Assembly (NCBI GenBank): GCA_025829515.1
Contig: GCA_025829515.1_4865.2
DNA length: 54,940 nucleotides
Source of the DNA: a phage
Strand: one strand, 5' to 3'
Shown: one piece after another, positions 3,339 to 49,178 of the stretch
Numbering within the stretch: position 1 is the first letter of the stretch
Layout of the letters: each line of letters starts with the position of its first letter
Position numbers and translations under genes: made by a program
The notes under the pieces: generated by a model
Seen by the model: the letters and a program-made list of their open reading frames with translations, nothing else
Databases searched by the model: none
What the model was told of the DNA's origin: nothing

Positions 3339-3368
3339 ATCAACTTTAACTCGAAAAAATACGACGTA

Positions 3369-5987: not shown

Positions 5988-5997
5988 GGAGCCTCCT

Positions 5998-6507: not shown

Positions 6508-6514
6508 GTCACTA

Positions 6515-23241: not shown

Positions 23242-23256
23242 AGATTGATATTATCT
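23242..23256. promoter_or_regulatory. palindromic motif site C (cagattgatattatct, one mismatch)
   Basis: About 55 nt upstream of the minus-strand gene start at 23189, in a divergent intergenic region. Confidence 0.45.
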
Positions 23257-23337
23257 ATGTGACAGTTCCTGAGAAATGTCTGGACTATGTGCCTTGTAAG
23301 TAAGCGACGGCGTACTTGCATTCCATGAAATTACAGG

Positions 23338-23350
23338 CAGATATTATCTC
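23338..23350 (+). promoter_or_regulatory. palindromic motif site D (perfect core AGATAtTATCT)
   Basis: About 50 nt upstream of the highly codon-optimised 617-aa gene. Confidence 0.5.
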
Positions 23351-23395
23351 TGCGAACCGAACTATGATTGCAATCACTATTAAGGAATATTTAAA

Positions 23396-25249
23396 ATGGT
23401 AAAAATCGTTGACTCTAACAACAACGCTCAGCAGAACAACACTCAGACTCAAGACACCGCACCACTGGGCGGTCTGGGCAACGAGACTGTAAAAGTGCAA
23501 ACTGCTGTGCCGGGTACTTCTACTGTCAGCCAATTCGATAACGCATTTGGCATCCGCAACATCAGCACCTATGCAATGCACTTCGTCAACCTCCTGGACG
23601 AGCTGAAGAAAAGCAACGAATACCTCAACGCATTCCGCTGGGGCACCATCGCTGGCGTGGGTAACGAAATGGGTTCCGCGGCGTATGTCGCAGGCCAATG
23701 GCAGGGCCACTGGCTGTATGGTATCATCTTCTTTGAACGCGGTCAGTCTCTGCGTCTGAAAGAAACTACCAACAACGGCCAGGAAGACTACTACACCATC
23801 ACTGAACTGTTCAACAAAGACGTGCTGGCAGTAGTACAGAAAAACATCATGGAAGCGCATGGTCTGACCAATGCGAACTTCATGATCATCAACTCCGTAC
23901 CAGACCTGGGTAAAGTTCTGGATGCTGAGTGGGCACGTACTCTGATGGGTCAGATGATGATGGGCATCTTCGGTCGTATCGCAGGCTACCTGGGTACGCT
24001 GAACCTGCGTAAGCATGACCGTTATCAGGCTGCAGTAATGCCGCTGGAAGATGGTGCGGTTGTGGATGCTAACGGCCACGCACAACGTGCTGATTTCGCA
24101 ATCACCGTTGAGCACAGCCCAAGCAACGTATCCGACGCCACTCCGACTCTGCTGGACACCAATCAGGTACAGGTGTATCCGCGTGTATCCGGTACTGGTT
24201 TCGTCAACATGCGTTTCACCGGTCAGAAGCCTGTCGTTAACGGCGTCTACGACCTGAAACAGCTGCAGGCTGAAATCGTAGTAAGTCTGGTCGATTCTCA
24301 AACTGAAGGTGCAATGGCACCGTATGAACGTCAACTGCTGCTGCTGGCTGCATTTGCAGAAATCGCGGCAATCGGTGGCTGGCGTGACCTGTTTGTGAAA
24401 CGTCTGAACAAACAAGATCGCAAGTTCTCCCGTGTGGCAGAATACCTGTCCTGGGGTGCTGACGCTCGTCCTGATGTATCCAAAATCGACGGTAGCCGTG
24501 AAGCTATCGAAGGTTGCCTGGATATGTTCGCACCGCGTGAAGCAGCACTGGTAGTTAGCCATCGTGCCGGTAACGGTCTGGGTGGTCTGTCTACTATGCT
24601 GTCTGAAATTGCGGTCGGTTACGACAACTCTCTGAAACAGCTGCTCGCTATTCTGAATTCCATGTCCCCGCGTGATCAGAACGGCGAAGTTGTTGCAGCG
24701 ACCAGCTTCACTGCAGTATTTGCTTCTGCACTGAAAGCACAGCTGGGCGATGCCTTCAATGGTACCATCCATTGCAGCCACATCGTGAAAGCAGCCGTAC
24801 CGACTGTTTCCGGTGTTTACACCGGTACTGCACAGAAACGTAGCTTCCAGGATATGGACCTGATTTCCGTTGTTACCAAACTGGGTGATAACGCGAACGA
24901 CGTCTATAGCTACCTGAACGCACAGTCCTACAGCCACCGTGAACTGAACGAGCGTCAACAGCGTATCTACATGCTGAAACTGGCCGCTTCTCTGTTCGCA
25001 TCCAAAGCACCGCAAGCTACCGGTGAATCTCTGGATATGGCTATCAACCCGATCTTCGGTAAATGCCTGCTGGACTTCGTCCGTAACAACTGCACCTGGT
25101 CTATGACTGGTGTAAATGCCTACAACACGATGGCGACCTCTCTGTTCTTCAACAACGGTGGGGAAGACTTCACGCTGTCTGGCAACGGCCTGTCTGCAAG
25201 CGGTTCCGATTTCGGTCTGGGCGTGTCTCTGAGCAACTTCAAACTGTAA
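23396..25249 (+). CDS. abundant 617-aa protein; candidate phage-nucleus shell protein (chimallin-like) by synteny, alternatively a major structural protein
   Basis: Strongly biased codon usage (ctg, cgt, ggt, aaa) implies very high expression; AAGGA RBS; lies immediately upstream of the RNAP beta' N gene, as chimallin does in phiKZ; no sequence-level confirmation. Confidence 0.6.
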   Translation: MVKIVDSNNNAQQNNTQTQDTAPLGGLGNETVKVQTAVPGTSTVSQFDNAFGIRNISTYAMHFVNLLDELKKSNEYLNAFRWGTIAGVGNEMGSAAYVAGQWQGHWLYGIIFFERGQSLRLKETTNNGQEDYYTITELFNKDVLAVVQKNIMEAHGLTNANFMIINSVPDLGKVLDAEWARTLMGQMMMGIFGRIAGYLGTLNLRKHDRYQAAVMPLEDGAVVDANGHAQRADFAITVEHSPSNVSDATPTLLDTNQVQVYPRVSGTGFVNMRFTGQKPVVNGVYDLKQLQAEIVVSLVDSQTEGAMAPYERQLLLLAAFAEIAAIGGWRDLFVKRLNKQDRKFSRVAEYLSWGADARPDVSKIDGSREAIEGCLDMFAPREAALVVSHRAGNGLGGLSTMLSEIAVGYDNSLKQLLAILNSMSPRDQNGEVVAATSFTAVFASALKAQLGDAFNGTIHCSHIVKAAVPTVSGVYTGTAQKRSFQDMDLISVVTKLGDNANDVYSYLNAQSYSHRELNERQQRIYMLKLAASLFASKAPQATGESLDMAINPIFGKCLLDFVRNNCTWSMTGVNAYNTMATSLFFNNGGEDFTLSGNGLSASGSDFGLGVSLSNFKL

Positions 25250-25278
25250 TCGAATCGGTTACTGAGTAGTTAGGAAAC

Positions 25279-25317
25279 GGACGGGGGCTAACGCCTCCGT
25301 CCTTCCCTCTTTTTTTG
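25279..25317 (+). terminator. rho-independent terminator
   Basis: GC-rich stem ggacggggg/cctccgtcc followed by a T-run. Confidence 0.6.
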
Positions 25318-25331
25318 TTGAGGTTGACAGA

Positions 25332-27283
25332 GTGAGAAAGGTACCAAAATTCTACGGAATATCCGGCCGGTTGGTTAGTCAGGATAACTATTTGTCCGAT
25401 TTGCAAATAGAAGCTGCAGCCAAAGGTATTAAACCACCCACTATTATTAACGATGTCGCCGTTAACGGGGATGCTATCGAGGTTGCTGAACTTATCGATC
25501 GCATGGTACAGAACAGAATCGTTGACGAAGAACTGAACTCTGCACCGATTTGTAGTTTGGATTGTCCGGCACCGATCGCGCATCGTTACAATCTCGGTTG
25601 TAAGTGTCCGACGTGTGGCTATGTTGTAACTGAACATCGAATTGAATCCGATGTCTGGTTACGTGCACCCGATGAAATGGGTAACTTCGTCAACCCACGA
25701 TTCTGGGCAATGTTCAATGCTTTCTTTAATAGCAAGTTGAAGAAGTTTGAACGTAACAAGGTCACTATCGAACGCGGTAATGACTTGATGATGTGGATGA
25801 TTGACCCGTATTACCGTATAGAAGAACCAGACGGTAAACGCGCACATGCTGTGAAACGTGTATTGGAAGAACATGGTTTCGTTCGTGGCTTGCGCAATCT
25901 GGTTGATAACCACGTTAGTATCTTTAACATCCTTACCACGCCAGAAGCCTGGAAGGAAATCTTCGCACCTAATCGGCATAACGCCGCTGAAGGTGAACGC
26001 TTACGTTTACAATGGAAGGAGCTATTCGAAACGCAACGTCACGCATTCTTCCCAAGACACTTACCGCTAATCTCCTCTAAACTTATCGTTACTGAGGAAG
26101 GTCGTCGTGGTGTCATGGTAGACCCAGTGTTCACGGGTGCTATTGATGCGGTGAAAAATATCGCGTTGCTCTATACGCGGCGTAAAGCGATCGAACCACG
26201 TTTTCTGATTAGTCGTGCTTTGAAGGCGAACCGTCAGCTAACGTACTTCCACATGGACTTCCGTCGTGAGTCTATGGAAGGTAAACCGGGTGACTATCGT
26301 GCGAAATTGGGTTCTACCCATATCCCGTTCGGTGGTCGTGCAACCATCTCACCTATCTCAGAACCACATGATGCCTGGAAGTTAAAAGCACCATGGCGTT
26401 GGATGGTTGGGTTGATGTCGACCCACATCGAGAACAAACTGCTACGACGCGGTTATTCGTCACGGCAGTGTGAACGTATCGTTGCGAAAGCGGCAATGCA
26501 GTATGACCCGCTTGTAGATGAAATCTTTAAAGAACTGATTCGTGAATCCCCAGGCGGTCTTGGGATCATGGTCATACCGTTACGTAACCCAACGCTGGTA
26601 CAGTTGTCTATTCAAACGCTGTACATCGATGAAGTTGTTACCGATGTTAACCAGTGTTCGCTGCGTATCTCTGACCGTGTGATCAAGATGGCTAACGGTT
26701 CGAAAAGAGCCCCATCGGACGGGAAACCTCTGATGCGTATTCTCCTGAAATGCTGGGAAACCCTAAAGCGTATCTACCAGAAATGGGGACGAAAGTCTGA
26801 AACAACAGATACGATGACCTACGCTAAACAATACTGCTAACGGTTGTGATAATGGGTAATCAGCAGCGAAGCCTCGTGAGAGGAACGTTCAACGACTATC
26901 GCTGAAATGCGAGTAGGGGTCCCAGTGGACTTCGAAGTGGGAGAACACCTAAGGCGATAGCTATGGTGAAGATATAGTCTGTGCCTTATCGAGAGATAAG
27001 GAGGGTGTCTTAGCACACCTGCTGTATACGGAAACGGTATACGGTGGACAAACAGGATTTCGATGGCGACCAGTTCCAGGTACGTTTGCCAGTCGATGAA
27101 ACTGAGATGAAGTTGGCGCTCCAATTCCGTCCAGATAACGGCTTTATGTCTTCTACTGATGTGGACCGCGTAGAACACGGCATGGTTTTACATAACGAGC
27201 TAATCAGTATGCAGAACCAGTTCCTTATTGAAGCAGATGAGGATGATGAAGAAGGCATTCCGTTGGAAGCGGTGATGGGCTAA
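25332..27283 (+). CDS. multisubunit RNA polymerase beta'-like N-terminal fragment, interrupted by a group I intron (exon 1 ~25332..26662, exon 2 ~27037..27283)
   Basis: Exon 1 has a beta'-type zinc ribbon (CSLDCPAPIAHRYNLGCKCPTCG), FRRESMEGK...GGRATISPISEP and IPLRNPTLVQLSIQ (cf. E. coli NRAPTLHRLGIQ); downstream frame encodes DFDGDQFQVRLPVDETEMKLALQF (cf. [26 protein letters not shown]); the two parts are in different frames ~370 nt apart and the second has no RBS. Confidence 0.65.
26663..27036 (+). ncRNA. putative ORF-less group I intron (boundaries +/- ~10 nt)
   Basis: Core elements in canonical order: P-like ggacgggaaa (26717-26727), Q-like aatcagcagcgaagcc (26858-26873), R-like gttcaacgactat (26887-26899), and aagatatagtc (26969-26979) identical to the Tetrahymena intron S element; gactat and atagtc can form P7; a U-ended exon 1 and G-ended intron restore the frame. 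Confidence 0.55.
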
Positions 27284-27296
27284 TAGGAGTATTGTA

Positions 27297-27878
27297 ATGT
27301 GGCTACAAGGTAGCACGGTGTGGACGAAACAGACCGAAGGTAGCGGGGCACTCAGCGTATTCAAAGAATCGTTTTCGCTGTCTAGCCTGGCACCCGATCT
27401 CGTTGACCGTGTAAAAGAACATTGTCAGGACTTAATCTCACTGGAGCGTTTCCGTGAAACATTCAGTACCGCACGTAAATTACGTTATAGCGATGCGGTA
27501 GAGATGGTAAGACAGATCGAAGAGTTGGGTGAATTCCAGTTCGCCAATGCTGCTTTACAGCCATTCCTCGTTGCCATGCCGGAATATCGTAAGTTGTATA
27601 ATGACGGTATGGCGACTGGTTATGAGAACGGCTTTTCTCGGTTGGATGTGTTCAAAGGCAATGCGTATATGCGTACCGATGACCACTTCCGCGAAGCAAC
27701 ATCGGGCATTTCGACGAAGTACGATGAAGATAAGATTTGGCAATGGGCTACCAATGAAGATCGTGCAGTACGACTGAGTCGAATCGATAAAGTGGATATT
27801 CAACTTAACTGGGCACGCATGTCAGCTTTCGACTGGGAAGATGGTGATCCCTGTTCGGAACTTGGCGCGACGTGTTAA
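27297..27878 (+). CDS. hypothetical protein
   Basis: 193-aa ORF; TAGGAG RBS. Confidence 0.55.
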   Translation: MWLQGSTVWTKQTEGSGALSVFKESFSLSSLAPDLVDRVKEHCQDLISLERFRETFSTARKLRYSDAVEMVRQIEELGEFQFANAALQPFLVAMPEYRKLYNDGMATGYENGFSRLDVFKGNAYMRTDDHFREATSGISTKYDEDKIWQWATNEDRAVRLSRIDKVDIQLNWARMSAFDWEDGDPCSELGATC

Positions 27879-27883
27879 AAAAG

Positions 27884-27912
27884 ATGGGGCTTCGGCCCCT
27901 CTTTTTTTCTTC
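27884..27912 (+). terminator. rho-independent terminator
   Basis: Stem ggggc/gcccc with UUCG loop followed by tctttttttcttc. Confidence 0.6.
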
Positions 27913-27960
27913 ACTGGGGGCTGTATGCAGCATCCTACCTTGAATTTGACAGGAGCTAAC

Positions 27961-28347
27961 ATGATTGCGGTAGGAACCTTATCCACACGTGGCTGGGCAC
28001 GTACACCCCAGGAAAAGGCGCGTGAGTTGATGAACCATTACACCGAGTCTGGCTATAGCCAATCGGTGGTTTATCGTGGGAACATTAAATCACTTGCGTA
28101 TACGCAAGCTGTGTTTGCACAAGATCCCGACGGGATGGTTGCCCAGATTAAAATGGATTTGGAGAACCTCTACGGGAACGTATTTCCTGCTGGCGTTGAA
28201 GTTGAAACCAGCTGGGAGTTTTTAAAAGATTCAGATGTGCGTTACCGCATCTTCATTAGTGTCCGTGTGCAAGAAGTTGTAGACGGTGAATGGTACGATG
28301 TTGAGCGGTACGTGGATACCGAGTCGAGTGCGATTGAGGATATGTAA
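27961..28347 (+). CDS. hypothetical protein
   Basis: ORF track start 27841 runs through the terminator; in-frame ATG at 27961 has AGGAG upstream (alternative ATG at 27925). Confidence 0.5.
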   Translation: MIAVGTLSTRGWARTPQEKARELMNHYTESGYSQSVVYRGNIKSLAYTQAVFAQDPDGMVAQIKMDLENLYGNVFPAGVEVETSWEFLKDSDVRYRIFISVRVQEVVDGEWYDVERYVDTESSAIEDM

Positions 28348-29021
28348 TGAGCCAGGAACCTACATTTAACGGTGTACCGTTAAGTCAGATGAATGAGCAG
28401 ATGCGCTTTGAGTATAACAAACTCAAAGAGATTGAAAACGATTTGGCGGAAAGCCAGAACGTCTGTAGTGTCTTCACCGAAGCACAGTTCCGTCGACAGG
28501 GCTTACCACTGCTGTCCGGGATGCTTGATGGTACTTTTAACGAAGAGACCTGGACGGCTTACGTAGGAAGTCCATTTGTACCCCTACAGATTGTGGACGA
28601 TGCTGATAACAGCAAACTGCTATTTACCATCCCTGCTCTGCTGAACACCGGCCGCTCGTTAATCACCGTTGACGGCGAACCCTCCCTCTCCGATGAGACT
28701 GAGTACATCCGTCGTCAGGTTGATGTGATTGCAACCGTCGGTGAAACCCAGATGTACAAGATGATCGATTACACCTTAACCGGGATCGAAAATATGTCTC
28801 TGGCTGAAAATTCAGTTCGTGCGAAGTACATTATTGACTTGCTGAACTGGATTTTCCGACGCTACGGTGTGGGTGGTCAATTGCCATATCCGGAAGGGTT
28901 GGTTGAATACGTCGATAAAATTACCGGCGGTAAAAACACGGCGACAGCTGCAGAGACTTCGGTGCAAGCCCCAGCTCAAACGCAGCCAATCGTAGGGATC
29001 GGTGATGGAGAAGATTACTAA
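28347..29021 (+). CDS. hypothetical protein
   Basis: 224-aa ORF; TAATG overlap with the upstream stop. Confidence 0.55.
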   Translation: MSQEPTFNGVPLSQMNEQMRFEYNKLKEIENDLAESQNVCSVFTEAQFRRQGLPLLSGMLDGTFNEETWTAYVGSPFVPLQIVDDADNSKLLFTIPALLNTGRSLITVDGEPSLSDETEYIRRQVDVIATVGETQMYKMIDYTLTGIENMSLAENSVRAKYIIDLLNWIFRRYGVGGQLPYPEGLVEYVDKITGGKNTATAAETSVQAPAQTQPIVGIGDGEDY

Positions 29022-30153
29022 ACCTCCTAAGAAACCAGAAGGTGTTAAGCGCCTTTTGAACACTAACGATATCCATTTGTTGCATAAGCGTGTGCCTACT
29101 TGGCACATCGTGGATGTGATACGTGAGGTACTCATTAGCTGCGAAAATACGCTTGACGCCTTTTATATAGCAGGGGATTTATTTGATGATTCCCGACATC
29201 TTCGCCAGGAAGATTCTCAAGAAGCTGTGGGCTTCTTGACGTGGTTGCTCCAGTGGTCTAAGGCCACTAATACCGCAGTTCGCATCGTTGAGGGAACACC
29301 GTCCCATGACCATGGCCAGTCCAAAATAGTTGAGTCGCTGAACATCAGTATAGGCGCAGACTGTTTGTATTTGGCAGGGATCGGGATATTTTACGATCCG
29401 GCTCTCGATGCGATGGTAGGTTGGGTGCAGGACGAATATAAAGCTGCTGGCGTCGATGAAATTAATGCTGCTGCCACTGAGGCAGAAATGGCAGAACTGA
29501 TGGCGACACGAGGCTTGGAGAAGTTAGACTTTATCTTCATGCACGGCTGCTTCCAGTTTCAACTCCCTGTCGAGTCCCCTCGTTCTTTCCACGAGGAGTT
29601 CTGGTTGCCGAGAGTCAAGCACCTGATATTTATCGGGCATGACCATCGACCCAAGGAATTAGACAAGATAAGAGTTGTAGGTAGTCCTGAGCGACTATCT
29701 CAAGGTGAAGAGGAGGACAAAGGCGTAGCTCTTGTCGATTTCACCGATACGGTTGCCAGGGATTATTTCCTGGTTAACCCACGCGCGTGCCCGCAGAAAA
29801 AGATTCGGGCACAGGAAGACTTTGATGCGCAGTTAGCAGCTTGTCTTTCTGCATTAGAATACATCGACAATCATCCCTCGTCCGCTATTGGGCGATTTGA
29901 GGTCGAGTATTACGCAGGCTCACCGATGGCCGAATACGTCAGTCGGTGGAAAAAAGAATACACGTTCCACATTTCTGGAGAGCGTGTGCGCTCCTCTGAA
30001 GAGGAGGAGTTGTTAGTGAAGAGTTTTTCGAACGAAGCCCCAGTGTACGAAAAACCTACTCCTGAGAACTTCGAACGGTTGGTTCTCGAAGAGCTAACAT
30101 CAGTGAAGTACGACCCTGATGTTGTTACTGCAATCATTAGGAAAATAGAATGA
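29005..30153 (+). CDS. calcineurin-like metallophosphoesterase, SbcD/Mre11-like nuclease
   Basis: Ordered phosphoesterase motifs: TNDIHL (D-x-H), AGDLFDD (GDxxD), EGTPSHDH (GNHD-like), FMHGCF, FIGHDH (GHxH). Confidence 0.65.
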   Translation: MEKITKPPKKPEGVKRLLNTNDIHLLHKRVPTWHIVDVIREVLISCENTLDAFYIAGDLFDDSRHLRQEDSQEAVGFLTWLLQWSKATNTAVRIVEGTPSHDHGQSKIVESLNISIGADCLYLAGIGIFYDPALDAMVGWVQDEYKAAGVDEINAAATEAEMAELMATRGLEKLDFIFMHGCFQFQLPVESPRSFHEEFWLPRVKHLIFIGHDHRPKELDKIRVVGSPERLSQGEEEDKGVALVDFTDTVARDYFLVNPRACPQKKIRAQEDFDAQLAACLSALEYIDNHPSSAIGRFEVEYYAGSPMAEYVSRWKKEYTFHISGERVRSSEEEELLVKSFSNEAPVYEKPTPENFERLVLEELTSVKYDPDVVTAIIRKIE

Positions 30154-30986: not shown

Positions 30987-31051
30987 GTTAAAATTTACGT
31001 TAGTGGGACATCATGTGTGAACCACTAGACTGCTTTTCCGAAAAGGATGAA

Positions 31052-31723
31052 ATGATGATTAACCAAGAAATTTTCAAAGACAAATGGCTTTACCCGCAGA
31101 CCGAACCGGATCAGCAAAACCGTACGCGTAAACTCAACATCGAACCGAATGATTTCAACGGCGATGTTGAAACTATGAAGTTTAGCTACTCCTTTGGTAA
31201 GGGCGAAGGTCTCTATTTCTCTGCGCCGATTACGGTTTGCCGTACCATTATCGAAGCTCTGCAGGATTGTCTGCGTAAGAGCGAAAAGAGTATGCTGAAG
31301 TTTACTAACGAAAACGGCAACAAACCGCCCGTTAGTCTGATTGTTGGCCGTGAAGACAACCTGGTACCGTTCATCGCTATTGCCGGTGAAATCCAGGGCG
31401 TTGGTGCCCGCCAGAAGAAGTTCTACTTCTCCTACCCGAAAGGTTTCCGTATTTTCCGCGACGGCCAGCAGGTTTCTGATTTAGAACTTGCCGAGCGCTG
31501 CGCACGTGCGTTTATCACTAACTTCGAGAAGTTCTTACAGAACCTGGAAGAGAAATATAAGCCGCGTGAATTCCAGCAAGGTGGTGGTAGCTTCGGTCGT
31601 GGTGGATACGGTGGTGGCCAGGGTGGTGGCCAGGGTGGTGGTCAGCGTAGCGGCGGCGGTTATCAACAGCAGCAACAATCTGTACCTCCAGCAACCACTG
31701 ATTCTTACGACGAGTTCCTCTAA
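31052..31723 (+). CDS. hypothetical protein with Gly/Gln-rich disordered C-terminal tail ending in an acidic tip (possible ssDNA- or RNA-binding protein)
   Basis: AAAAGGA RBS before ATG 31052 (track start 31013); codon-optimised; C-terminus GGGSFGRGGYGGGQGGGQGGGQ...DSYDEFL resembles SSB-type tails. Confidence 0.5.
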   Translation: MMINQEIFKDKWLYPQTEPDQQNRTRKLNIEPNDFNGDVETMKFSYSFGKGEGLYFSAPITVCRTIIEALQDCLRKSEKSMLKFTNENGNKPPVSLIVGREDNLVPFIAIAGEIQGVGARQKKFYFSYPKGFRIFRDGQQVSDLELAERCARAFITNFEKFLQNLEEKYKPREFQQGGGSFGRGGYGGGQGGGQGGGQRSGGGYQQQQQSVPPATTDSYDEFL

Positions 31724-31804
31724 GAAACAAAATAAAAAATACGCCCAAGGGAAACCTTGGGCTATTAACGCTTATGCGTGGTCCTGCAACACACACTGTA
31801 AGAA

Positions 31805-31824
31805 GATTTAGATAGATATTATCT
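31805..31824 (+). promoter_or_regulatory. palindromic motif site E (gatttagatagatattatct)
   Basis: Perfect core; 20-mer identical to site F; ~40 nt upstream of the 31859 start. Confidence 0.5.
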
Positions 31825-31858
31825 CAGTGCAATCGACTATTCGCGGAGTTCAACTATA

Positions 31859-33493
31859 ATGAAAATTATGAAGATTAAAGACCGGATGACAATCGAGCAT
31901 CATGGTCAAGAGGTCACATTTATTGGCTTACGTTATCGGAAGGATAACAACGCACCCGACTACATCACTGTTAAAGGTAAACAGATTGCACGCGACAACA
32001 TTCTCTTCATGGAATTACAACGCGTGTGGGATTATTTAACGCCAGACGAACAAGATGAACTGTTCATGGCGTATCTGATGCTGGACGAGCTGGCAAACGA
32101 ATCGACGGAAACGCAGCGTAAGCACATGCCGAAGATTGTGCAGACGATTGCGAAGTTCCACAAGGCCGAAGTGTATCGTAAGCTGTATCCCATCGATAAG
32201 CTGTGGATTCCGCAGAACATGGAAGATACGCACGATGAAATGAACAGTAATTATCCGGAAGCGATGACGTACATTCGTCCGGACTATTACGAGTTGTTGA
32301 TACTGGTCCTGATGATTAAACCGTATATTCCGGTGTTCCTCACCATGGGGACGTTCCCGATAGGTAAGAACTTGCCAATCGAAACACATCGGAAAATGGT
32401 GTACAATCTGACATACTGTCTGGAGATGCTTCAAGACACAGAAGTCATGTCTTTACCTGCTATTCCGAAACTGCGTGGATTCCTACAGACAGTGATGGAA
32501 AAGGTAGAAAAAGAACTGGCAAACAAAGGTACGAACAGCACCAGTTTGTCGGTACTAGCTACGGTGCGGGGCTATGGCACGGATATGATGGAAGATTATA
32601 TCCTGGCGTATGCTATTATTAAATTGTTGGCTGTCCGTGAAGTCGGTGGTGAATTACCGGTTGAAATCATGGTTAACAACAATATCGTCACCGGCATGTA
32701 TTTTCTGGTTAAACAAGAGATTGAAACAGGTTTTGCAAACAAAATCTCTAACCAGCCGGTGCTGTTAAAAGCGCATCCGGAAAGTGTGGTATTCAATGGC
32801 GAAAAGGGTAAGATAAACGCCATGGATTTGGTGCAGGCACGTTCTCCTGCACAGATGAAAGAATACGTCCGTACCGAGTACGTATTTAAAGAATACCGCT
32901 CTTTCTTGAAAACAATGCGTCTGGATAATGCCGCTCCAGCAGATGTTAAGTTATTGATTGATTCGCAACTGGCAACACACGACGGTCCTGTCTATACGTT
33001 GCACGAATGGTTAGTCGCATTAGCACTCCATCGTAGCGTGCATTATAAGACGTATACTGAATGTGGACCAGAAGCGTTTCGCTACGGTATGGCATTGGCG
33101 CAGGCAACTTATCTCAATTATGGAATGTATGACGTTGCGCAACTGTTAAGTTGCAATATGGTGCGTTCTGAGATGTCTGCCGGCTATGCAGCCGACCCAA
33201 TTCGATCTGAACTCAAAGCAGATTTAGATAGATATTATCTTCAGGAGTATCGCAACCCGCGTAATCTCGAACCGCAATCTACACCACGGGAATCACTGAC
33301 CTTGTTACACAAGGATCACATCAACCCGTATCTGTTCCATCTCAGGGCTACACCAGAAGCAGCTGCGCTGCTGAAGTGTGAGACGGATCAGCCAAACTAT
33401 ATACCTCACTTGTCACTGCACAATAGCCTGGCGGAGTTTATGGTGTTGAATGCACGTCGCAAGTTAGAAGAAGTTGAATGGTTTAATTCTTAA
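31859..33493 (+). CDS. hypothetical protein
   Basis: 544-aa ORF downstream of motif site E. Confidence 0.6.
   Translation: MKIMKIKDRMTIEHHGQEVTFIGLRYRKDNNAPDYITVKGKQIARDNILFMELQRVWDYLTPDEQDELFMAYLMLDELANESTETQRKHMPKIVQTIAKFHKAEVYRKLYPIDKLWIPQNMEDTHDEMNSNYPEAMTYIRPDYYELLILVLMIKPYIPVFLTMGTFPIGKNLPIETHRKMVYNLTYCLEMLQDTEVMSLPAIPKLRGFLQTVMEKVEKELANKGTNSTSLSVLATVRGYGTDMMEDYILAYAIIKLLAVREVGGELPVEIMVNNNIVTGMYFLVKQEIETGFANKISNQPVLLKAHPESVVFNGEKGKINAMDLVQARSPAQMKEYVRTEYVFKEYRSFLKTMRLDNAAPADVKLLIDSQLATHDGPVYTLHEWLVALALHRSVHYKTYTECGPEAFRYGMALAQATYLNYGMYDVAQLLSCNMVRSEMSAGYAADPIRSELKADLDRYYLQEYRNPRNLEPQSTPRESLTLLHKDHINPYLFHLRATPEAAALLKCETDQPNYIPHLSLHNSLAEFMVLNARRKLEEVEWFNS
33221..33240 (+). promoter_or_regulatory. 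palindromic motif site F, embedded in the 3' part of CDS 31859..33493
   Basis: Exact 20-mer gatttagatagatattatct, here encoding DLDRYYL; ~270 nt upstream of the 33506 start. Confidence 0.4.
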
Positions 33494-33505
33494 GGAGTAT
33501 TTAAA

Positions 33506-35206
33506 ATGCAGCTTGTAAATCTACTGATGTATCCGGTCTACGATGTTCCAGAGCAAGTTCGTCGCCGCATCGGCTTTAACGCATCTACGGGTGCGCTGGA
33601 TGACTTAGCAGCAGCGGTTGAACTGGGCGGGGAAAAAGCTGTGGGGACACAGCAGTATCAAGAAGCGTTATCTGCCATCGTGGGCTTCGATGGCACCCAG
33701 AATGGTTTTGAGCGTCCATTCATCAACGTGTCCGATGATGACAATCGTCCTGTACAGTTCCAATGGGAATCACGTGATACCGGTATCTTTAACTTCGTGG
33801 CGGTGTTTATTGCTAAACCTCTGAATGCAACACGCACTCAGGAAACGCAATACATCGTCTCCGGTTATACCAGTCAGGCAGAAACCAGCCTGGGTAGCCT
33901 GCTGCCGGACGATATGGTGTTGTACATTAACGACATCTACGGCTTACAGGCAACGTATACACACGATGCCCTGGGCGGCAAAACATTGAACCCAGACTCA
34001 TTCCGTCTACTGGATAACTACGTTTTATCGAAAGCGCTGTCTGTTGAAGGTCAAACAGAAAGTACGGTAGATATCATTTCGATCGCGAAAGCAGCGGACA
34101 TGGTAAAACGTATTGAAATGAATAGCGGTGAGAAGTTCGTCCCAACGAGCGACTCTGTGCTATCCGCAACCAGTAGCTCTGCACCACAGTTGATGGTATC
34201 CCAACTCCAGCGTCCAGAAAACTACGTATCTGCCATCAGTAATGCGTATCTGGCAAGCTCTGGGGTAGATACCGAACTCGGTAGCGTGGAAAGCTTCTTT
34301 GCAGGTAATAACTCCATCGGCGTTGAATCTGAATTGAAGCAACGTGGTGTTATCCGTAACTACAGCAACCACGAACTGATTGCTGCGATGCGTCAAGCAC
34401 TCCAGAACGGGATGTCTGATGTATCTGGCGGCTGGAAAGCAACCAGTAAGGCGACGTTCCGTTTGGCTGATTTGCGTAATGCGATTGTCAACCCAATGCG
34501 GTTGGATGAATGTATCCGTGAATCGCTGGCGCTGGCAAGTCGCCGTGGGTTGGGTGCAGGGCTGGTTAACCAAACCGACCACTGGATTGGACGTAATGGC
34601 TTCTCCACGCAGGGTAGTCTAGTTGCGTATGATCTGGCTATGTCTATCGGGCCGATTATGTCACGTAACCTGATTGGTGAAGTGAGCTTTGTCTTTGATA
34701 ACCGCAACACAGATATCATGATAGAGCCTACGCTGGAAGTTATTCCTAACTCAGTCAGCAGCATCACGCACCATCAGTTACCTGCTGCGTTAGGTCGTCG
34801 TTTCTTGCAGAACATGAAAGAAGCGATGGTTCAGGTTACTAAACATAACCATATTCGCTGCCACATGCTGGTCACCGCATTGTTGGGGACCGTTACTCGT
34901 ATTGAAATCCGTGTCGACGACGAACCGCTGGAATATTACACCTACGCGTCGTTTATGCAATTCCGTCTTCATACCGGCAACACCACCGATCTCAAATACG
35001 TTGGTGAGCTGGCACAGAACACCGCAACGCTGTTGAAAGCCGTGGAAGAAGGTTATACAGAATTCGAGAAAGGCCAAGGCCGGGGTCGAATGCTATCTAA
35101 CATTCCAACTAACACAGGTGGCTTAGATCCTCTCGGAGGTCTTGACCTGGGTGGTGGCTTAGGCGGTATAGGCGGAAACGGACTCGGCAACGGTCTCATT
35201 GATTAA
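33506..35206 (+). CDS. hypothetical protein with Gly/Leu-rich C-terminal tail
   Basis: 566-aa ORF; AAGGAG RBS; C-terminus GGLDPLGGLDLGGGLGGIGGNGLGNGLID. Confidence 0.6.
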   Translation: MQLVNLLMYPVYDVPEQVRRRIGFNASTGALDDLAAAVELGGEKAVGTQQYQEALSAIVGFDGTQNGFERPFINVSDDDNRPVQFQWESRDTGIFNFVAVFIAKPLNATRTQETQYIVSGYTSQAETSLGSLLPDDMVLYINDIYGLQATYTHDALGGKTLNPDSFRLLDNYVLSKALSVEGQTESTVDIISIAKAADMVKRIEMNSGEKFVPTSDSVLSATSSSAPQLMVSQLQRPENYVSAISNAYLASSGVDTELGSVESFFAGNNSIGVESELKQRGVIRNYSNHELIAAMRQALQNGMSDVSGGWKATSKATFRLADLRNAIVNPMRLDECIRESLALASRRGLGAGLVNQTDHWIGRNGFSTQGSLVAYDLAMSIGPIMSRNLIGEVSFVFDNRNTDIMIEPTLEVIPNSVSSITHHQLPAALGRRFLQNMKEAMVQVTKHNHIRCHMLVTALLGTVTRIEIRVDDEPLEYYTYASFMQFRLHTGNTTDLKYVGELAQNTATLLKAVEEGYTEFEKGQGRGRMLSNIPTNTGGLDPLGGLDLGGGLGGIGGNGLGNGLID

Positions 35207-35218
35207 GGATTATTAACC

Positions 35219-36586
35219 ATGAAATTGATTGAATTCTACCGTTCGTTTCTGACCTCGCTCGGATACGGATTCGAAGGTGACATGCTGACTATCGATGATG
35301 GTCATCCGGCAATGTTCACCTACAACAAAGTGAAGCGCCGCTTGGTGCTTCCAACTGCAGCGATGATTAAGCGTGGGTTGGAAGATGACGAAGGTAGTGA
35401 ATGTCATGCGTTCCACCCACTGTGTGAATCGGTACTGGCTGGCGAATCTGGAACGATTCGTTTCCTGAAGAAAGCCATCAACGCGAACCTCTTCCTGAAA
35501 AGCTTCGAGTTAATCGATGCGATTTTGGAAACAGCAGCCGAAGGAAAAAATATCCGTCTGGCAGCGTACAAGAAGTTTTTAAGCGATGTGGTTTGTGCTG
35601 ACCTGAAAGATCCAACGATGGATAAGAAACTGGTTCAGAGCTGGCACGCAGTGAAGAACTACGTTTACGGGTTGCTGGAAGAAGATAAAAAGACAAAGAT
35701 CACCAGTATCTTCATCTCCAGCGATATGACCATTGAAGGTATCAAATATATCCGTGTGGCGAACTACAAACACATGTTTGAAGAAGAGTCACTGGATGGT
35801 ACGGCAACATTCTTCGGTGCCAAGCTCCAGCGTAAGCAGGATAAGGTCATTATCTTTAACCTGCTAACTGCAGTGTTTGGTTGGTATCCTTCGGTTACGG
35901 GTTCTAACGATCCGCGTCCGTACTTCGGTTCTTTGGCACGCGGTTGGGCACAATACGTGACCAACTACAATCAAGTGGTTCGTGGTCTGCGTGACCACAC
36001 TCCACTGCGTCCGTTAGAAGAAGAATGGATTGGCCAACTGGATAACATGAGCGTTTATGATAACGTTATCCAAACTCTGCCGTATAATACCGGCCCACGC
36101 ACCGATCAGGCAACAGACACCACCGCAACGGATTTCCGTATCGGGCGTACACCTGCCGGCACAAAGCCGGTCGTTGCTTTAGCTTCTCAACAAGCTCCGC
36201 AGGAAAATCTTGATCTCAACGATCCGGTAAACTATTTCCGTGCGAAGAAAGCGCAACAGGCGTCTTCAGCTAATAGCTTCAATGCGTTAGCACCGAAGAT
36301 TCAGGAAGCGCTGCGTGAGAACAACGGCCATTTACCGAAAGGGACAATTAAAGAACTGTCTCTCGGTGAAGCGCTGCGTGGTAATGCGGTGACGAAAGAA
36401 AGTGGTCTGGGTTCTGGTTTGCTGGGAAGTAGTAATAATCTCTTGGGGGGTAGCACGCAGTTGGGCGGCGGTAGCACCAACCTCTTAGGAGGGAGTAGTG
36501 ACGTGTTAGGTGGTCTGGGTGGTTTAGGTGGCGGAAGTAGCAGCAGTTTAGGCAACCTACCATTCTCATCAGCTAATTTACGTTAA
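35219..36586 (+). CDS. hypothetical protein with Gly/Ser/Leu-rich C-terminal tail
   Basis: 455-aa ORF; AAGGA RBS; C-terminal ~70 aa of LLGG/SGLG repeats. Confidence 0.6.
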   Translation: MKLIEFYRSFLTSLGYGFEGDMLTIDDGHPAMFTYNKVKRRLVLPTAAMIKRGLEDDEGSECHAFHPLCESVLAGESGTIRFLKKAINANLFLKSFELIDAILETAAEGKNIRLAAYKKFLSDVVCADLKDPTMDKKLVQSWHAVKNYVYGLLEEDKKTKITSIFISSDMTIEGIKYIRVANYKHMFEEESLDGTATFFGAKLQRKQDKVIIFNLLTAVFGWYPSVTGSNDPRPYFGSLARGWAQYVTNYNQVVRGLRDHTPLRPLEEEWIGQLDNMSVYDNVIQTLPYNTGPRTDQATDTTATDFRIGRTPAGTKPVVALASQQAPQENLDLNDPVNYFRAKKAQQASSANSFNALAPKIQEALRENNGHLPKGTIKELSLGEALRGNAVTKESGLGSGLLGSSNNLLGGSTQLGGGSTNLLGGSSDVLGGLGGLGGGSSSSLGNLPFSSANLR

Positions 36587-36596
36587 GCGTTAGAAA

Positions 36597-36626
36597 GAAG
36601 GGACTGGGCGTCCCTTCTTTTTTTCA
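36597..36626. terminator. bidirectional rho-independent terminator
   Basis: Stem aagggac/gtccctt flanked by an A-rich stretch upstream and T-run downstream; between convergent genes. Confidence 0.6.
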
Positions 36627-36947
36627 AGATTCTACGATAGTCGATAAGATGTTACTTACCACACCGACACTAGGAACCAATAAGGTTCTTATCTCTGGCG
36701 TGAAATCAAACGGAGTAGAAATTCCGTTCATTAACATCATCGGATAAATAATACTATTATCGTACTGTTTGAGACGACAGTACGCGTAGAAACTGTGTAC
36801 CTCTGGGTAGGCATATTTTGGGTCAACAACTTCTTCTGTAGTATCTGGGTGTTTGCGAAGGAAGTCTGTATAGTCATGCAACACCTTATACTTGGTCGAA
36901 TCAGGCGAAGGTATTATTTCGGATAAGGTAGCAAATTTATCTAGCAT
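36624..36947 (-). CDS. hypothetical protein
   Basis: 107-aa ORF; ATG (plus 36945-36947) preceded by AAGGAGA on the minus strand. Confidence 0.55.
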   Translation of the reverse strand: MLDKFATLSEIIPSPDSTKYKVLHDYTDFLRKHPDTTEEVVDPKYAYPEVHSFYAYCRLKQYDNSIIYPMMLMNGISTPFDFTPEIRTLLVPSVGVVSNILSTIVES

Positions 36948-36967
36948 CGTCTCTCCTTAAAATAAAA

Positions 36968-36984
36968 CAGATAGATATTATCTT
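36968..36984. promoter_or_regulatory. palindromic motif site G (cagatagatattatctt)
   Basis: Perfect core in the divergent intergenic region between 36624..36947 (minus) and 37014 (plus). Confidence 0.5.
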
Positions 36985-37013
36985 ACCGAGGTAACCAAAA
37001 GGAGCATTTACGA

Positions 37014-39251
37014 ATGAAAACACCAGTCGAACTCATGTCAAGCGTTGCTGACCGTGAGGTGAATATCACTGGCGTATCTGGGGCACGTGCCTCAATGGTG
37101 GGTGGACATATGAAGTCGGCGGTACCACTGGACAATCCAGATCCGACTATCCATTTTACCGGCGCTGATGTGAACTACCACGATTATTGTTTTAACGATA
37201 TCGTGGAAGACAGTGGTACCGTGTGCAGTTACACAACCAAAGAAGGTGTTACTCGTGCAGCTGTTTTTGCACGCTATGGTCGTGAAGGGGATCACGATCC
37301 GCTCCAACATGTTATCTTCTTCACGCGCGCAGATTTAACCAACCAGCGCAAAGTGATGATTGATGTAATCGATATCAAGTATTACACCAACCACGATAAC
37401 ATTTTCTCGTCTAAGAAAGAGGCTACTGGGAAACTTCAGGCGTTGCTGCGCGGGCAGACTCAGCACCTGGAAAAAGATGAAATGCTTACCGTGCTGCCGG
37501 CACAGAAAGACGGTGAGTTTGTCGATGGGGTCAACCTGCACACCGTGACAATGTCGCACCCGGACATTATCGAGGACTCGTACACCATCTCCGAAACTGC
37601 AGCGAAGGCGATGCACGCTTATGGTTTGCGTGCAATTGACTTTACCCTGCGCGACGACGAGTACCTGCTTGACACGTATGGGACAACGGGTATTGATGGC
37701 GTTCGTCGACCACAGTACCTGCCCAATAAAGGACAGGCAATTCGTGATGATGGGTTGGTTATTGCCGCGCGCCGTTTCGATAAGCTATGGGCAGCCATTG
37801 ACTCGCACGTAGGTGAAACACAACATATCTCTCCGCACTTCGACCGTTGTGAGTATGTTGATGCTGACCCTGAGCATTACAAAGCGCGTCAGGCTGGCGA
37901 CTTTGAAAAGATGGAACGTACTGGTTCTCGTGTCGTTGATATTCAGGTATGGCGGGACGAAACCAAATGCGATCGTGGTGTTAACAATATCGCATGTACC
38001 GAAGAGAACAAACGCGAGTTAGATCACTACGCGAACGCTTTGAAACGTTTTTACAATGATATCGTGCGGTTCTATTTTGCGATGTCCAAGGACAAGAATA
38101 TTGTCTGGTCACCGAAAGCGTTTGAGATTCTTGACAAGGCGTTCTGTTCTGAGACGTATGAAGTCTATAACGACTTCCGTGAAGAGATTGGTCGTGAATA
38201 CGATGAAGCCATGCGTAAAGGTGAGTATAACCGTTCTGCTGATAAGAACGTGTTAAACAAACTGGCGCAGCCGGTTCAGCGTGGTCTCTGGGACCCAATT
38301 GGTAGTTACACGATACGCATCGTGGTACGTTATCCAATCCCAGTTACCGTCTCATCGAAAATCACCGACCGTTCAGGTACAAAAGGTATCGTGGGCGCAG
38401 TGCGGCCTGATGAAGAAATGCCGATTAACGAGTTCGGAGAACGTGTGCACGTCATTCGTTCCATGAACGCCGTAATTCGTCGTTCGACTTATGCTGCGCT
38501 GTTCCACATGTATTGGTCTGCTGCATCCGAGCAGTTGAAGATGCGGTTGAAACCATTACTTGCTGCCAACCAGGTTGATGAAGCCTGGGAAATCCTGATG
38601 GACTATATCGATCGCTATAACCCACGCTGGACATTCTATCTCAATGCCAGTCACCCAGATACTGAGTCACGTCTGGAACTCTTTAAAGAGATTTACGACT
38701 TCACGATTCGTATCTGGCTTCCCCACGAATTGAATGCCACCCAGGTAGAAATCTGCCGTGCTCTAGGCGAGTATGCACCACGCAAGTCTAAGCTACTGAT
38801 TACTAACTATCAGGGTGAGAAAGAGTGGACGAAGAACCAGTTCTACGTCGGCATGGTAGAGACTCTGCGCCTGGATAAAACCGGTCGTGAGTTCTCCAGT
38901 ATCTCGTCGATGTACACGAACTATTTGGGTTGTATTGATGCATCCAACCAAGGACGTGGTTCATATCCGATTAACCTGAAAGGGTTGAAGTGGGGTGGTC
39001 CTTCCGAGCAGCGTCTTACCGACGGCTTTGGTCCGGGCAACTTCCCCGAAACTCATGACCGCGCTAATAACCCTGCGGTACACCGTGCGATCGTAACGGG
39101 GTTGTATAACTCGCCAACACCAACCAATCCGGGGGTGCTGGTCGATCGTAAGAAACTGCCAATGGGAGATTCGCAGATTGACAGGATGATACGTAACATC
39201 CATCGCTGTGAAGGTTTTGAATTAGTGCGTCCAATTCGGGAGGATAAATAA
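37014..39251 (+). CDS. multisubunit RNA polymerase beta-like subunit fragment (C-terminal region homolog)
   Basis: [38 protein letters not shown] aligns with E. coli beta [74 protein letters not shown] aligns with [33 protein letters not shown] RBS. Confidence 0.65.
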   Translation: [745 protein letters not shown]

Positions 39252-41356
39252 TGGCGGGTCGTTCTGTACACGTGCGTGATTTGCGTATGCTTAACTCTGA
39301 TCAGGTGTGGAAACTACGCGGGCGTTATTACGTGACATTCGACGATGGTAAGTCGTTGGAAATGTCTAGTCGCCACATCAAACTCAGCTGGCCGTATTGG
39401 GGTGTGTCGCGTCTGTATCCGCAGGTGCCCACTCCATCGACCATGGCGTATCGTCCAGGTCAGGTAGCAACAGATGACCTGCATCTGGACTTTATGTCGG
39501 AAGCAGCGGTACTGGCCCGTAAAGCAGGTGTCGACCTTGCTGAAACGCGTTATATCCTGAGTCAACATGTCTACGCCGATGCGTTCAACATGACAGTGAA
39601 GAACTTGCTGTCGTATTGTACGACAATCGACTTTGACACGATGATGGAGATCTACGACCACCCGAACTTCGAACTCATCCGTCAGTGGGAAGTGCAATAC
39701 CCTACTGGCTACGATGAAGATGGTCAGGATATGGTTGAAGAAGCGTACAAGCTTATCGAGAAAATCTTCAAAGACCCTGCGCTACGGTATAACCCGGTCG
39801 TGATGTCGGTACTGGACGGTACTGTGAAGATGAACCAGGTACTGCAAGCCTTCGTGCGTGGTAAAACGTCAGAAATTGACTCACGTGTATACACCAATCA
39901 GGTGTGGGAAGGCTTCTTTACCGGAATGCACTCGGTTATTTCGCGTTTGAAAGAATCCGGTGCAACATCACGTTCCCACTTGTACAACACTGACAAGATT
40001 GCCGAAGCAGAATACGCCTCACGTAAACTGCAGCTGGCAGCAAACGTACTGATGTATTTCACGTACGACGACTGCGGTACAACTCACGCACACCGCTACA
40101 CGTTTAAGGATACGCAGCTGGATGAGCGTGCCTATAAAGCGATGGTGGGGATGCGTTATCGTTTAGAAGGCGATAATGGTCCGTGGTTGAGATTTGAGAA
40201 AGGTGGATACGCAGACCTGGTTGGTAAACCGCTGGTCTTCCGTAGTGCAATGACCTGTAAAGAGATGGCGAATCAGTCCATCTGTGCGACCTGCATGGGG
40301 GATTTGATTTATAACCTCTCTGAAGGCACGTCACCGGGTCACCTGGCATCCACTTCCATCTCAGAAAAGGGTACACAGGGAATTCTCTCCACCAAGCACC
40401 TTGACTTCTTGCGTTATCTGCTCAACCTGGTACTCACGCCGAGAATGCGTGAGTACATGACCGAATACAAACATAACTCTCTGAAAGGGTTGTGCTTGCT
40501 ACCAAAACCACAGCGTGGTAATTGGTCAGAATACGAGTTGGTCGTTACCGACAAAGTTTATTCGGAGCTGAGCCAGATTGCGTATCATGAAGATCTCGAT
40601 GCAATCGATGAAACAGCATTGCCGGAAATCACCGACTTGACATTCCAGCGTCGTTTAGAAGATGGGCAAATCATCGCTGCAGATTCTATCGATGTGCGAA
40701 TGGGTGTTTGTGGGAACTTCTCTAAACCGTTCTTGCATTACTTCTTGAAACAACGTGCGAACATTCGTATCGAGAAGAAGACGGTTCAGATTCCTTTGAA
40801 AGGATGGAACCCGAAACACCCGGTACTGGTCTACACCAACCGTTCTGAATCGATGGCAGAATTCGTGGCAGGGTTAGAAACCAAGCTACGTTCAATCGCA
40901 GCCGATAAGAACGAAGACATTGTGGAAATCATCAACACAGCCTCGACTGTGAAGTTGAACAAGAAACAAGGTCGTGTGAAACCGGTAACGTTGGTTGAAA
41001 TGGGTGGTGCTACAGAGAAACAGTGTACTTATGCGTTGATGGATACGTTTAAGTACATCCAGCGTAAGCTGAGCGGTATACCGATGACGCACATTGCGAT
41101 TATGTTGGCGATATCTCGTGTAGAGTCACCAACCAATCCGTTCCCGGCAGTAGGATTTGACAGTGAGGATTCTACTAATGCCACCGGGAAACGGTTTGTC
41201 GATCACAACACGCTCATTAGTTTGCGCTCGGCAATTCCGATGTTGTTGTTTGAAGGACAGCAGGGGAATATCGATCGCGTTGGTTTTTATACCGAGTACA
41301 AAATCCCGGCATCGTTGTACGATGACCTAGGAGCCGCTGTGGTAATTGAGTTGTAA
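39251..41356 (+). CDS. multisubunit RNA polymerase beta'-like C-terminal fragment (trigger-loop region)
   Basis: CATCMGDLIYNLSEGTSPGHLASTSISEKGTQGILSTKHLD aligns with E. coli beta' [42 protein letters not shown]; TAATG overlap with the upstream gene. Confidence 0.65.
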   Translation: MAGRSVHVRDLRMLNSDQVWKLRGRYYVTFDDGKSLEMSSRHIKLSWPYWGVSRLYPQVPTPSTMAYRPGQVATDDLHLDFMSEAAVLARKAGVDLAETRYILSQHVYADAFNMTVKNLLSYCTTIDFDTMMEIYDHPNFELIRQWEVQYPTGYDEDGQDMVEEAYKLIEKIFKDPALRYNPVVMSVLDGTVKMNQVLQAFVRGKTSEIDSRVYTNQVWEGFFTGMHSVISRLKESGATSRSHLYNTDKIAEAEYASRKLQLAANVLMYFTYDDCGTTHAHRYTFKDTQLDERAYKAMVGMRYRLEGDNGPWLRFEKGGYADLVGKPLVFRSAMTCKEMANQSICATCMGDLIYNLSEGTSPGHLASTSISEKGTQGILSTKHLDFLRYLLNLVLTPRMREYMTEYKHNSLKGLCLLPKPQRGNWSEYELVVTDKVYSELSQIAYHEDLDAIDETALPEITDLTFQRRLEDGQIIAADSIDVRMGVCGNFSKPFLHYFLKQRANIRIEKKTVQIPLKGWNPKHPVLVYTNRSESMAEFVAGLETKLRSIAADKNEDIVEIINTASTVKLNKKQGRVKPVTLVEMGGATEKQCTYALMDTFKYIQRKLSGIPMTHIAIMLAISRVESPTNPFPAVGFDSEDSTNATGKRFVDHNTLISLRSAIPMLLFEGQQGNIDRVGFYTEYKIPASLYDDLGAAVVIEL

Positions 41357-41359
41357 ACC

Positions 41360-41386
41360 GAGGGGCCTTGCGCCCCTCTTTTTTTG
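41360..41386 (+). terminator. rho-independent terminator
   Basis: Stem gaggggc/gcccctc followed by a T-run. Confidence 0.6.
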
Positions 41387-41402
41387 TGCGAAGAGGGGCA
41401 GC

Positions 41403-48657: not shown

Positions 48658-48670
48658 GGATTGTTTCCTC

Positions 48671-49171: not shown

Positions 49172-49178
49172 ATAAAAG

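Follow-up and report, generated by a model that had tools for sequence, protein, structure and literature searches.

A predicted chimallin gene beside a split non-virion RNA polymerase in the conserved core block of a Seoulvirus

Does a phage that carries a fragmented multisubunit RNA polymerase (RNAP) beside a gene of unusually strong codon bias also encode the shell of a phage nucleus? This question is raised by a stretch of phage DNA of 54,940 nucleotides (GenBank assembly GCA_025829515.1, contig GCA_025829515.1_4865.2; the whole stretch is called the window), in which an initial annotation had pointed to three RNAP-like open reading frames (ORFs) and a gene for a 617-amino-acid (aa) protein at 23396-41356, and had named the 617-aa product, from synteny, as chimallin, the shell protein of nucleus-forming phages. 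The four ORFs lie exactly where they had been placed, at 23396-25249 (617 aa), 25332-26840 (502 aa), 37014-39251 (745 aa) and 39251-41356 (701 aa). Our analysis indicates that this region is almost certainly the conserved replication and transcription core block of a nucleus-forming Seoulvirus, in which the 617-aa gene, chmA, encodes chimallin and its neighbours encode the non-virion RNAP (nvRNAP), save for one of its five subunits, together with homologues of nuclear import (Imp) factors. The earlier reading is supported, and the feature has been described previously in relatives.

To identify the relatives of this DNA, 50,697 phage records were searched by megablast with the region 23396-41356. 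Full-length matches were found in Salmonella phage 1252 (99.6% identity), SPLA5c (99.4%), and SPLA3 and E. coli phage Lh1B (both 99.3%), and 26 records cover at least 80% of the region. The close matches whose records were opened belong to the genus Seoulvirus, and the remoter ones are Erwinia phages. The window is therefore from a member of a sequenced and named group of ~240-kb jumbo phages, the genus Seoulvirus of the family Chimalliviridae, whose members infect Salmonella or E. coli and have the Salmonella phage SPN3US as type phage.

The chmA gene (23396..25249, plus strand) encodes a protein that is 99.5% identical in amino acid sequence to SPN3US_0022 (gp22, AEP83855.1; RefSeq ACQ60_gp244, YP_009153316.1). 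An AlphaFold2 model of the 617-aa protein, built on 27 homologues, reached a predicted template modelling score (pTM) of 0.77, with an ordered core at residues 57-578 and disordered tails at residues 1-56 and 579-617 (predicted local distance difference test, pLDDT, below 50). When the model was compared with the PDB by Foldseek, a check that had been proposed for this protein, ranks 1-9 were all chimallin or PhuN (probability 1.00, E-values from 2.3e-21 to 7.3e-17, TM scores of 0.56-0.68), with the Goslar (7SQV, 7SQT and 7SQU) and 201phi2-1 (gp105; 7SQQ, 7SQS, 7SQR and 8IGG) chimallins and the phiPA3 PhuN (gp53; 8FNE) among them, while rank 10 had an E-value of 0.05. The chimallin identity, formerly proposed from gene order, is thus borne out by the nine top structural matches. 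A search of BFVD gave 17 full-length matches from phiKZ-like phages, such as Noxifer, RP12, RSF1, Eowyn and pTD1. The model carries the two-domain core fold of chimallin, and flexible N- and C-terminal segments lie outside this core. In the solved chimallins, flexible terminal segments dock onto neighbouring protomers. Across the 27 homologues, the C-tail residues F584, N586, G588, L594, G596, G598 and L608 are invariant or nearly so; a tail that is conserved and yet predicted to be disordered would be anticipated in a segment that attaches to adjacent protomers. The gene order is also as had been claimed: chmA lies directly 5′ of the fragment for the N-terminal part of the RNAP beta' subunit (beta'N), just as PHIKZ054, annotated as 'nuclear shell protein', precedes PHIKZ055 in phiKZ.

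Several observations weigh against this assignment. The window protein shares only 12-14% identity with the solved chimallins in structural alignment, at a root-mean-square deviation of 6-10 A. In the PDB, phmmer found no match to the 617-aa protein at E 0.01 or even at E 10, and a 27-sequence profile of its family found none at E ≤ 10. Pfam searches with the protein and all 27 homologues returned noise and nothing significant; PF25677, which is precomputed for some of the homologues, gave no match in our local Pfam copy. The 617-aa protein falls in the unannotated phrog_8316, while phiKZ gp54 is in the separate phrog_4795 ('nuclear shell protein'). By tblastn against the same 50,697 records, the protein found Seoulvirus, Erwinia and Cronobacter relatives only, and never phiKZ, Goslar or 201phi2-1, and gp54 was not detected when the window ORFs were searched against the phiKZ proteins with phmmer. 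Sequence homology to the characterised chimallins was not detectable in these searches, which is a caveat and not the loss of a strictly defining feature. The assignment accordingly draws on the predicted structure, on synteny and on one published statement, that of Laughlin et al. 2022 (PMC9365700), in which SPN3US 'gp244' was named as a diverged chimallin homologue with 10% identity reported. The high expression, the splicing and the promoter use of the window genes are, for their part, predictions.

The last point of this kind comes from the SPN3US group itself. In gradient-purified prohead preparations from protease mutants, Reilly et al. 2020 (PMC7411985) found gp22 in roughly the amount of the major capsid protein, and mature virions lacked it; they suggested a scaffold or core role. 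Even so, we consider it very unlikely that the 617-aa protein is a scaffold or a core protein of the head: its model has the two-domain alpha/beta fold whose nine top matches are chimallins, its gene occupies the conserved chimallin position next to nvRNAP beta'N, and the same kind of SPN3US-infected cell lysate holds large protein sheets with a p4 tetragonal lattice (PMC7552025), which Laughlin et al. attributed to chimallin. In that case gp22 may have co-purified with the proheads as shell fragments or sheets.

The chimallin reading also settles a confusion of names. The RefSeq tags of SPN3US mirror the original tags (NC_027402.1 / JN641803.1), in that ACQ60_gp244 is SPN3US_0022 and ACQ60_gp022 is SPN3US_0244. 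Consequently 'gp244' denotes chimallin in Laughlin 2022 but a 240-aa beta'C fragment of the virion RNAP (vRNAP) in Thomas 2016, and the original gp244 (ACQ60_gp022, YP_009153538) is a 240-aa virion structural protein. In a 2025 preprint (10.1101/2024.12.31.630880), the 'experimentally confirmed chimallin' of SPN3US bears the accession YP_009153538. On the modelled fold, the SPN3US chimallin is the 617-aa protein, and the same result argues against the head-scaffold suggestion. Among the 60 GenBank homologues listed for the shell protein, 59 are called 'hypothetical protein' and one 'protein of unknown function DUF2019'. They bear no functional name because the family falls in an unannotated PHROG apart from the phiKZ type, and annotators based on PHROG cannot name the shell protein as long as phrog_8316 (unknown function) stands separate from phrog_4795. 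A sequence identical to the window chimallin is deposited in a Salmonella enterica serovar Derby assembly (XI41_21145), a deposit which fits the finding, reported in the same preprint, of Seoul-like virulent jumbo phages in bacterial genome assemblies.

We next consider the RNAP genes, for which the phiKZ nvRNAP (PDB 7OGP; subunits gp55/56.1, gp68, gp71-73, gp74 and gp123) served as the reference in phmmer searches. The 502-aa ORF matched 7OGP chain A (gp55 + gp56.1) at E 1.5e-32 over residues 52-456. The 745-aa ORF (37014..39251, plus strand) matched chain C (gp71-73) at E 1.9e-29 over residues 427-737, as well as chain C of the AR9 nvRNAP (7S00) at E 1.6e-8; it scored above the cut-off for Pfam Rpb2_6, carries a DRSGTKG motif and corresponds to SPN3US gp34, the C-terminal beta subunit (beta-C). 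The 701-aa ORF (39251..41356, plus strand) matched chain D (gp74) at E 8.8e-39 over residues 8-548, with a weak Pfam match to Rpb1_5 and a CATCMGDL...GTQ motif, and corresponds to SPN3US gp35, the C-terminal beta' subunit (beta'-C). Moreover, a fourth gene (31859..33493, plus strand, 544 aa) matched chain B at E 2e-6 and shares phrog_3209 with phiKZ gp68, the fifth subunit of the enzyme. The locus thereby contains the hallmarks of an nvRNAP, namely a beta'N with a zinc ribbon and (N)ADFDGD, separate beta-C and beta'-C subunits and a gp68-type subunit. The RNAP motifs seen at first are real, and since the 7OGP alignments span hundreds of residues, the concern raised with them, that the similarity might be limited to the short motifs, is disposed of. 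The initial view of the ORFs as individual subunits of a split, phiKZ-like multisubunit RNAP is confirmed by the chain matches, which specify the non-virion enzyme. The N-terminal beta subunit (beta-N, the gp123 homologue) was not found in the window; Thomas 2016 puts the SPN3US nvRNAP beta-N at gene 77, outside it.

Both enzymes of such phages consist of split beta/beta' homologues, and GenBank calls all of them 'RNA polymerase beta subunit', which could suggest that the three ORFs encode the virion-packaged RNAP instead. This is exceedingly improbable, as the ORFs match the nvRNAP chains gp55, gp71-73 and gp74 of phiKZ and are accompanied by a homologue of the nvRNAP-specific gp68, while Thomas 2016 lists gp42, gp218, gp240, gp241 and gp244 as the vRNAP subunits of SPN3US and gp35 as the nvRNAP beta' subunit. 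The phiKZ matches and this list exclude the vRNAP reading. The vRNAP subunit of the window is another ORF (47359..48657, plus strand), outside the region, which is homologous to phiKZ gp80 and SPN3US gp42 (phmmer E 1.5e-40); phiKZ gp80 is annotated as 'structural head protein', and SPN3US gp42 is among the vRNAP subunits of Thomas 2016.

The 502-aa ORF had been credited with both a beta' zinc ribbon and DFDGD. The zinc ribbon and the RNAP homology stand, but DFDGD is not within the ORF: it opens a second exon behind an intron. Exon 1 (25332..26699, 456 codons) contains the zinc ribbon C-x12-CxCxxC, matches 7OGP chain A and is collinear with the intron-less SPN3US gene; it is followed by a group I self-splicing intron of 356 nt without an ORF (26700..27055) and by exon 2 (27056..27283, 75 aa), whose translation begins with the catalytic DFDGD and matches the C-terminus of SPN3US gp23, all on the plus strand. 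The Rfam group I model RF00028 matched 26680-27001 with 69.4 bits against a gathering threshold of 50 (E 1.3e-15, model positions 1-253 of 253), and the bounds of the intron were set by comparison with the uninterrupted 1,596-nt SPN3US gene. Exon 1 ends in ...AAC GGT, and exon 2 starts with GAT TTC GAT GGC GAC in a different reading frame from that of the 502-aa ORF. In the minimum-free-energy fold, GGU|UC/GAGCC makes up P1, in which U26699 and a G form the canonical wobble pair of the 5′ splice site; the last nucleotide of the intron is G27055, directly ahead of GATTTCGATGGCGAC. The catalytic core above threshold, the splice-site U-G pair, the terminal G and the frame restored by excision are all features of a group I intron. 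The predicted spliced product of 531 aa (...IKMANG|DFDGDQ...) reads ...IKMANGDFDGDQ..., and the spliced ORF has the length of the intron-less SPN3US gene (1,596 nt, 531 aa plus stop) and the same ...ANGDFDGDQFQVRLP... junction; the agreement refers to length and junction. Thus, no genuine protein corresponds to the 502-aa ORF; translation running on into the intron accounts for its last 46 residues (457-502) and explains why its match to phrog_2987 stops at residue 456. From the literature on relatives, the intron is expected to be spliced in vivo.

The same site is occupied differently among the relatives. In phiKZ (47923-50761 was the region compared), an intron at the same position of beta'N (...KAPNG / ...ADFDGD) carries the HNH endonuclease gp56, whereas the window intron has no ORF; since the solved phiKZ chain is a fusion of gp55 and gp56.1, the homologous phiKZ intron is removed at this site. 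Within Seoulvirus, three states of the site are found. SPN3US has it empty, in contrast to the window gene with its 356-nt intron, and so does the SPFM series, as judged by a megablast coverage of 98%. Six records have the ORF-less intron at ≥98.6% identity. Proteus phage 7 (MT679221.1, 18018-23333) has an insertion of ~1.39 kb, in which an ORF with NUMOD1 and weak HNH matches was found, and SaP7 has apparently the same insertion, with a related intron core at 79% identity. This distribution has the look of a homing cycle sampled at different stages. In GenBank, the two exons of the intron-bearing relatives are annotated as two unrelated coding sequences (CDSs), 'beta subunit 1' and 'beta subunit 2'. 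The beta'N intron, the fourth nvRNAP subunit and the nuclear import genes between the RNAP genes had all been overlooked in the initial annotation.

Codon usage was assessed for 48 window ORFs by the codon adaptation index (CAI; hand-entered Sharp-Li weights for E. coli) and by the effective number of codons (Nc). The 617-aa gene had the highest CAI, 0.667 against a mean of 0.327 and a standard deviation of 0.088, and the lowest Nc, 34.4, a measure that needs no reference set and gave the same ranking. As had been claimed, it is therefore the most strongly codon-optimised gene of the window. SPN3US gp22 was reported as 'abundant in infected cells' (PMC7552025), and its published abundance agrees with this codon bias. 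The size and the very high codon bias would suit an HK97-fold major capsid protein as well, yet this reading is effectively refuted by Foldseek, whose 50 best PDB matches to the model include neither an HK97 fold nor a capsid protein, and its chance is vanishingly small given that SPN3US has its major capsid protein in gp75, the product of a gene elsewhere, and that gp22 is absent from purified virions.

The upstream region of chmA contains two copies of the decamer GATATTATCT. In its extended form AGATAGATATTATCTNNGTG (≤3 mismatches), the motif occurs 7 times in the window, always on the plus strand, against 0.04 copies expected; these seven copies of the early-promoter-like motif, also written as AGATAGATATTATCTnnGTG, start at 12365, 15330, 23242, 23335, 31810, 33226 and 36969. 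Six of the seven are intergenic and lie 30-150 nt ahead of start codons, and the copy at 33226 is inside the gp68-like gene, ~260 nt ahead of the start codon of the Imp1-like gene. The motif scan thus placed a distal copy (AGATTGATATTATCTATGTG, 23242..23261) and a proximal copy (23335..23354, ~40 nt 5′ of the start codon) ahead of the shell gene, a perfect match (31810..31829) ahead of the gp68-like gene and one copy (36969..36988) ahead of the beta-C/beta'-C gene pair. The motif closely resembles the early promoters that were predicted for OBP/N1M2 (TTTYARRYAKATATTATYWWADTG), 201phi2-1 and phiKZ (TATATTAC) (PMC7058600, Table 2), and AT-rich motifs centred near -10 are the early promoters read by the virion RNAP (review PMC7598289). 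Promoters of the sigma-70 type were not enriched in the window, with 4 found by the promoter scan against 4.7 expected. An AAGGA Shine-Dalgarno sequence lies ~10 nt ahead of the chmA ATG. At the other end of the gene, a terminator-like element (25279..25316, plus strand) consists of a 10-bp GC-rich hairpin followed by a T-run; the hairpin, 3′ of the stop codon, folds at -24.3 kcal/mol (z -2.0), which suggests a terminator function. The terminator scan missed it because the T-run begins 7 nt past the stem.

The surroundings of chmA were compared with phiKZ by phmmer, and 17 window ORFs matched phiKZ proteins between gp42 and gp82 in collinear order. The first part of the block comprises gp42, gp50 (DNA polymerase), gp52 (minus strand), [gp54], gp55, gp59, gp62, gp65 (SbcD) and gp66, and the second part [gp67], gp68, [gp69], gp70, gp71/73, gp74, gp75 (helicase), gp77, gp80 (virion RNAP) and gp82, where brackets mark the proteins not detected by pairwise phmmer of the window ORFs. 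Window and phiKZ have PHROG families in common for the homologues of gp59, gp67, gp68, gp69 and gp70, and the assignments of gp67 and gp69 rely on such shared families (3284 and 3141) at equivalent positions. On the plus strand, the region encodes homologues of gp59 (Imp3, a nuclear import factor; 27297..27878; phmmer E 1.1e-5, phrog_3254 in common), of gp65 (an SbcD-like nuclease, annotated likewise in relatives; 29002..30153; E 2.4e-31), of gp67 (Imp6, a ChmC-type RNA-binding protein; 31013..31723; phrog_3284), of gp69 (Imp1/PicA, a nuclear protein-import factor of 566 aa; 33506..35206; phrog_3141 and position) and of gp70 (35219..36586; E 6e-11, phrog_3520 in common). The product of the gp67-like gene ends in a tail rich in Gly (RGG/GGGQ); the true start of this gene is probably the ATG at 31055, and its CAI of 0.545 is the second-highest in the window. 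The roles of Imp1, Imp3 and Imp6 were described in a preprint (bioRxiv 10.1101/2024.03.27.586873), which lists gp70 among the nuclear proteins; by analogy, the window homologues may function in import.

Among the window ORFs, a Gly content of 20% or more over the C-terminal 40 residues is confined to the Imp6-, Imp1- and gp70-like proteins (GGGQ/RGG, GGL and LGG repeats), and the disordered tail of ChmA contains Gly below this cut-off. In phiKZ, gp54, gp67, gp69 and gp70 have low-complexity tails of a composition unlike that of the window counterparts; the feature is conserved between the two phages, the sequence is not. It is conceivable, albeit improbable, that the four low-complexity C-tails (of ChmA and the Imp6/ChmC-, Imp1/PicA- and gp70-like proteins) act together at the shell, where they might dock into the chimallin lattice like the C-terminal segments of chimallin itself or, alternatively, might make up a selective phase, similar to that of FG nucleoporins, that serves import and export. 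As a separate idea, and one we hold just as doubtful, the SPN3US-type chimallin could build a geometrically distinct shell, considering its low identity to the solved proteins, its separate PHROG and a lattice reported as 13.5 nm periodic in SPN3US lysates against 11.5 nm for 201phi2-1 and Goslar (Laughlin et al., PMC9365700).

Drawing on the literature on relatives, we propose that the injected virion RNAP would transcribe chmA early from the two tandem phiKZ-type early-promoter motifs, and that the transcript would be translated at a very high level, as the host-like codon bias and the published proteomic abundance suggest. ChmA may then self-assemble through its flexible N- and C-terminal tails into a square lattice around the replicating phage DNA. 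The beta'N gene, with its group I intron ahead of DFDGD, and the genes at 31859, 37014 and 39251 would supply four of the five nvRNAP subunits, and the assembled nvRNAP would transcribe middle and late genes inside the nucleus.

Other features of the window were recorded as well. Within positions 1-7600 the window crosses the point at which the circle of the SPN3US record was arbitrarily opened, so that the source genome is numbered differently from SPN3US. By length and relative position, the 703-aa ORF at 988-3099 appears to be the counterpart of the SPN3US large terminase gene (234363-236474), a correspondence drawn from coordinates only. tRNA genes at 9436-9508, 10866-10935 and 10938-11009 reach the Rfam gathering threshold, the third marginally (30.6 bits against 29), and the corresponding SPN3US region is annotated with tRNA-Trp and 'tRNA-OTHER'. 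The helicase gene 3′ of beta'C (41346-43109) encodes ~568-587 aa in the window and in SPN3US; in Lh1B (23990-26734) and SPLA5c (23996-26740) it is annotated as a 914-aa CDS with ~1,020 extra nt relative to the window, labelled 'terminase large subunit' in SPLA5c. The extra ~1,020 nt, absent from the window, are possibly an intein or a fused mobile element.

For SPN3US, descriptions of the split RNAPs date from 2011-2016 and the naming of the chimallin from 2022, and reviews already cover the nucleus that phages of this group form. As a discovery, the present finding is of minor importance, and its practical value is for annotation: what remains to be gained is a name for the shell protein, the repair of the split beta'N CDSs and awareness of the mirrored SPN3US tags.

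Compared with known systems, the window protein is closest to SPN3US gp22, which has the same length of 617 aa and the same place between a gp21-like minus-strand gene and nvRNAP beta'N, with essentially no difference within the protein itself. The chimallins of Goslar, 201phi2-1 and phiPA3 have the same overall fold over ~560-610 columns, a similar length and disordered terminal extensions like those of the window protein. The phiKZ nvRNAP has the same split architecture and gene order, with four of its five subunits matched in the window at E-values from 2e-6 to 9e-39, although the phiKZ beta-C gene is split by introns (gp71/72/73) whereas that of the window is continuous. Similarly, the phiKZ import factors Imp1/PicA (gp69), Imp6 (gp67) and Imp3 (gp59) belong to the same PHROGs as the window homologues; among them, only the gp59 homologue was found by pairwise phmmer, and the low-complexity C-tails differ in composition, but all three hold the same positions relative to the RNAP genes in both phages.

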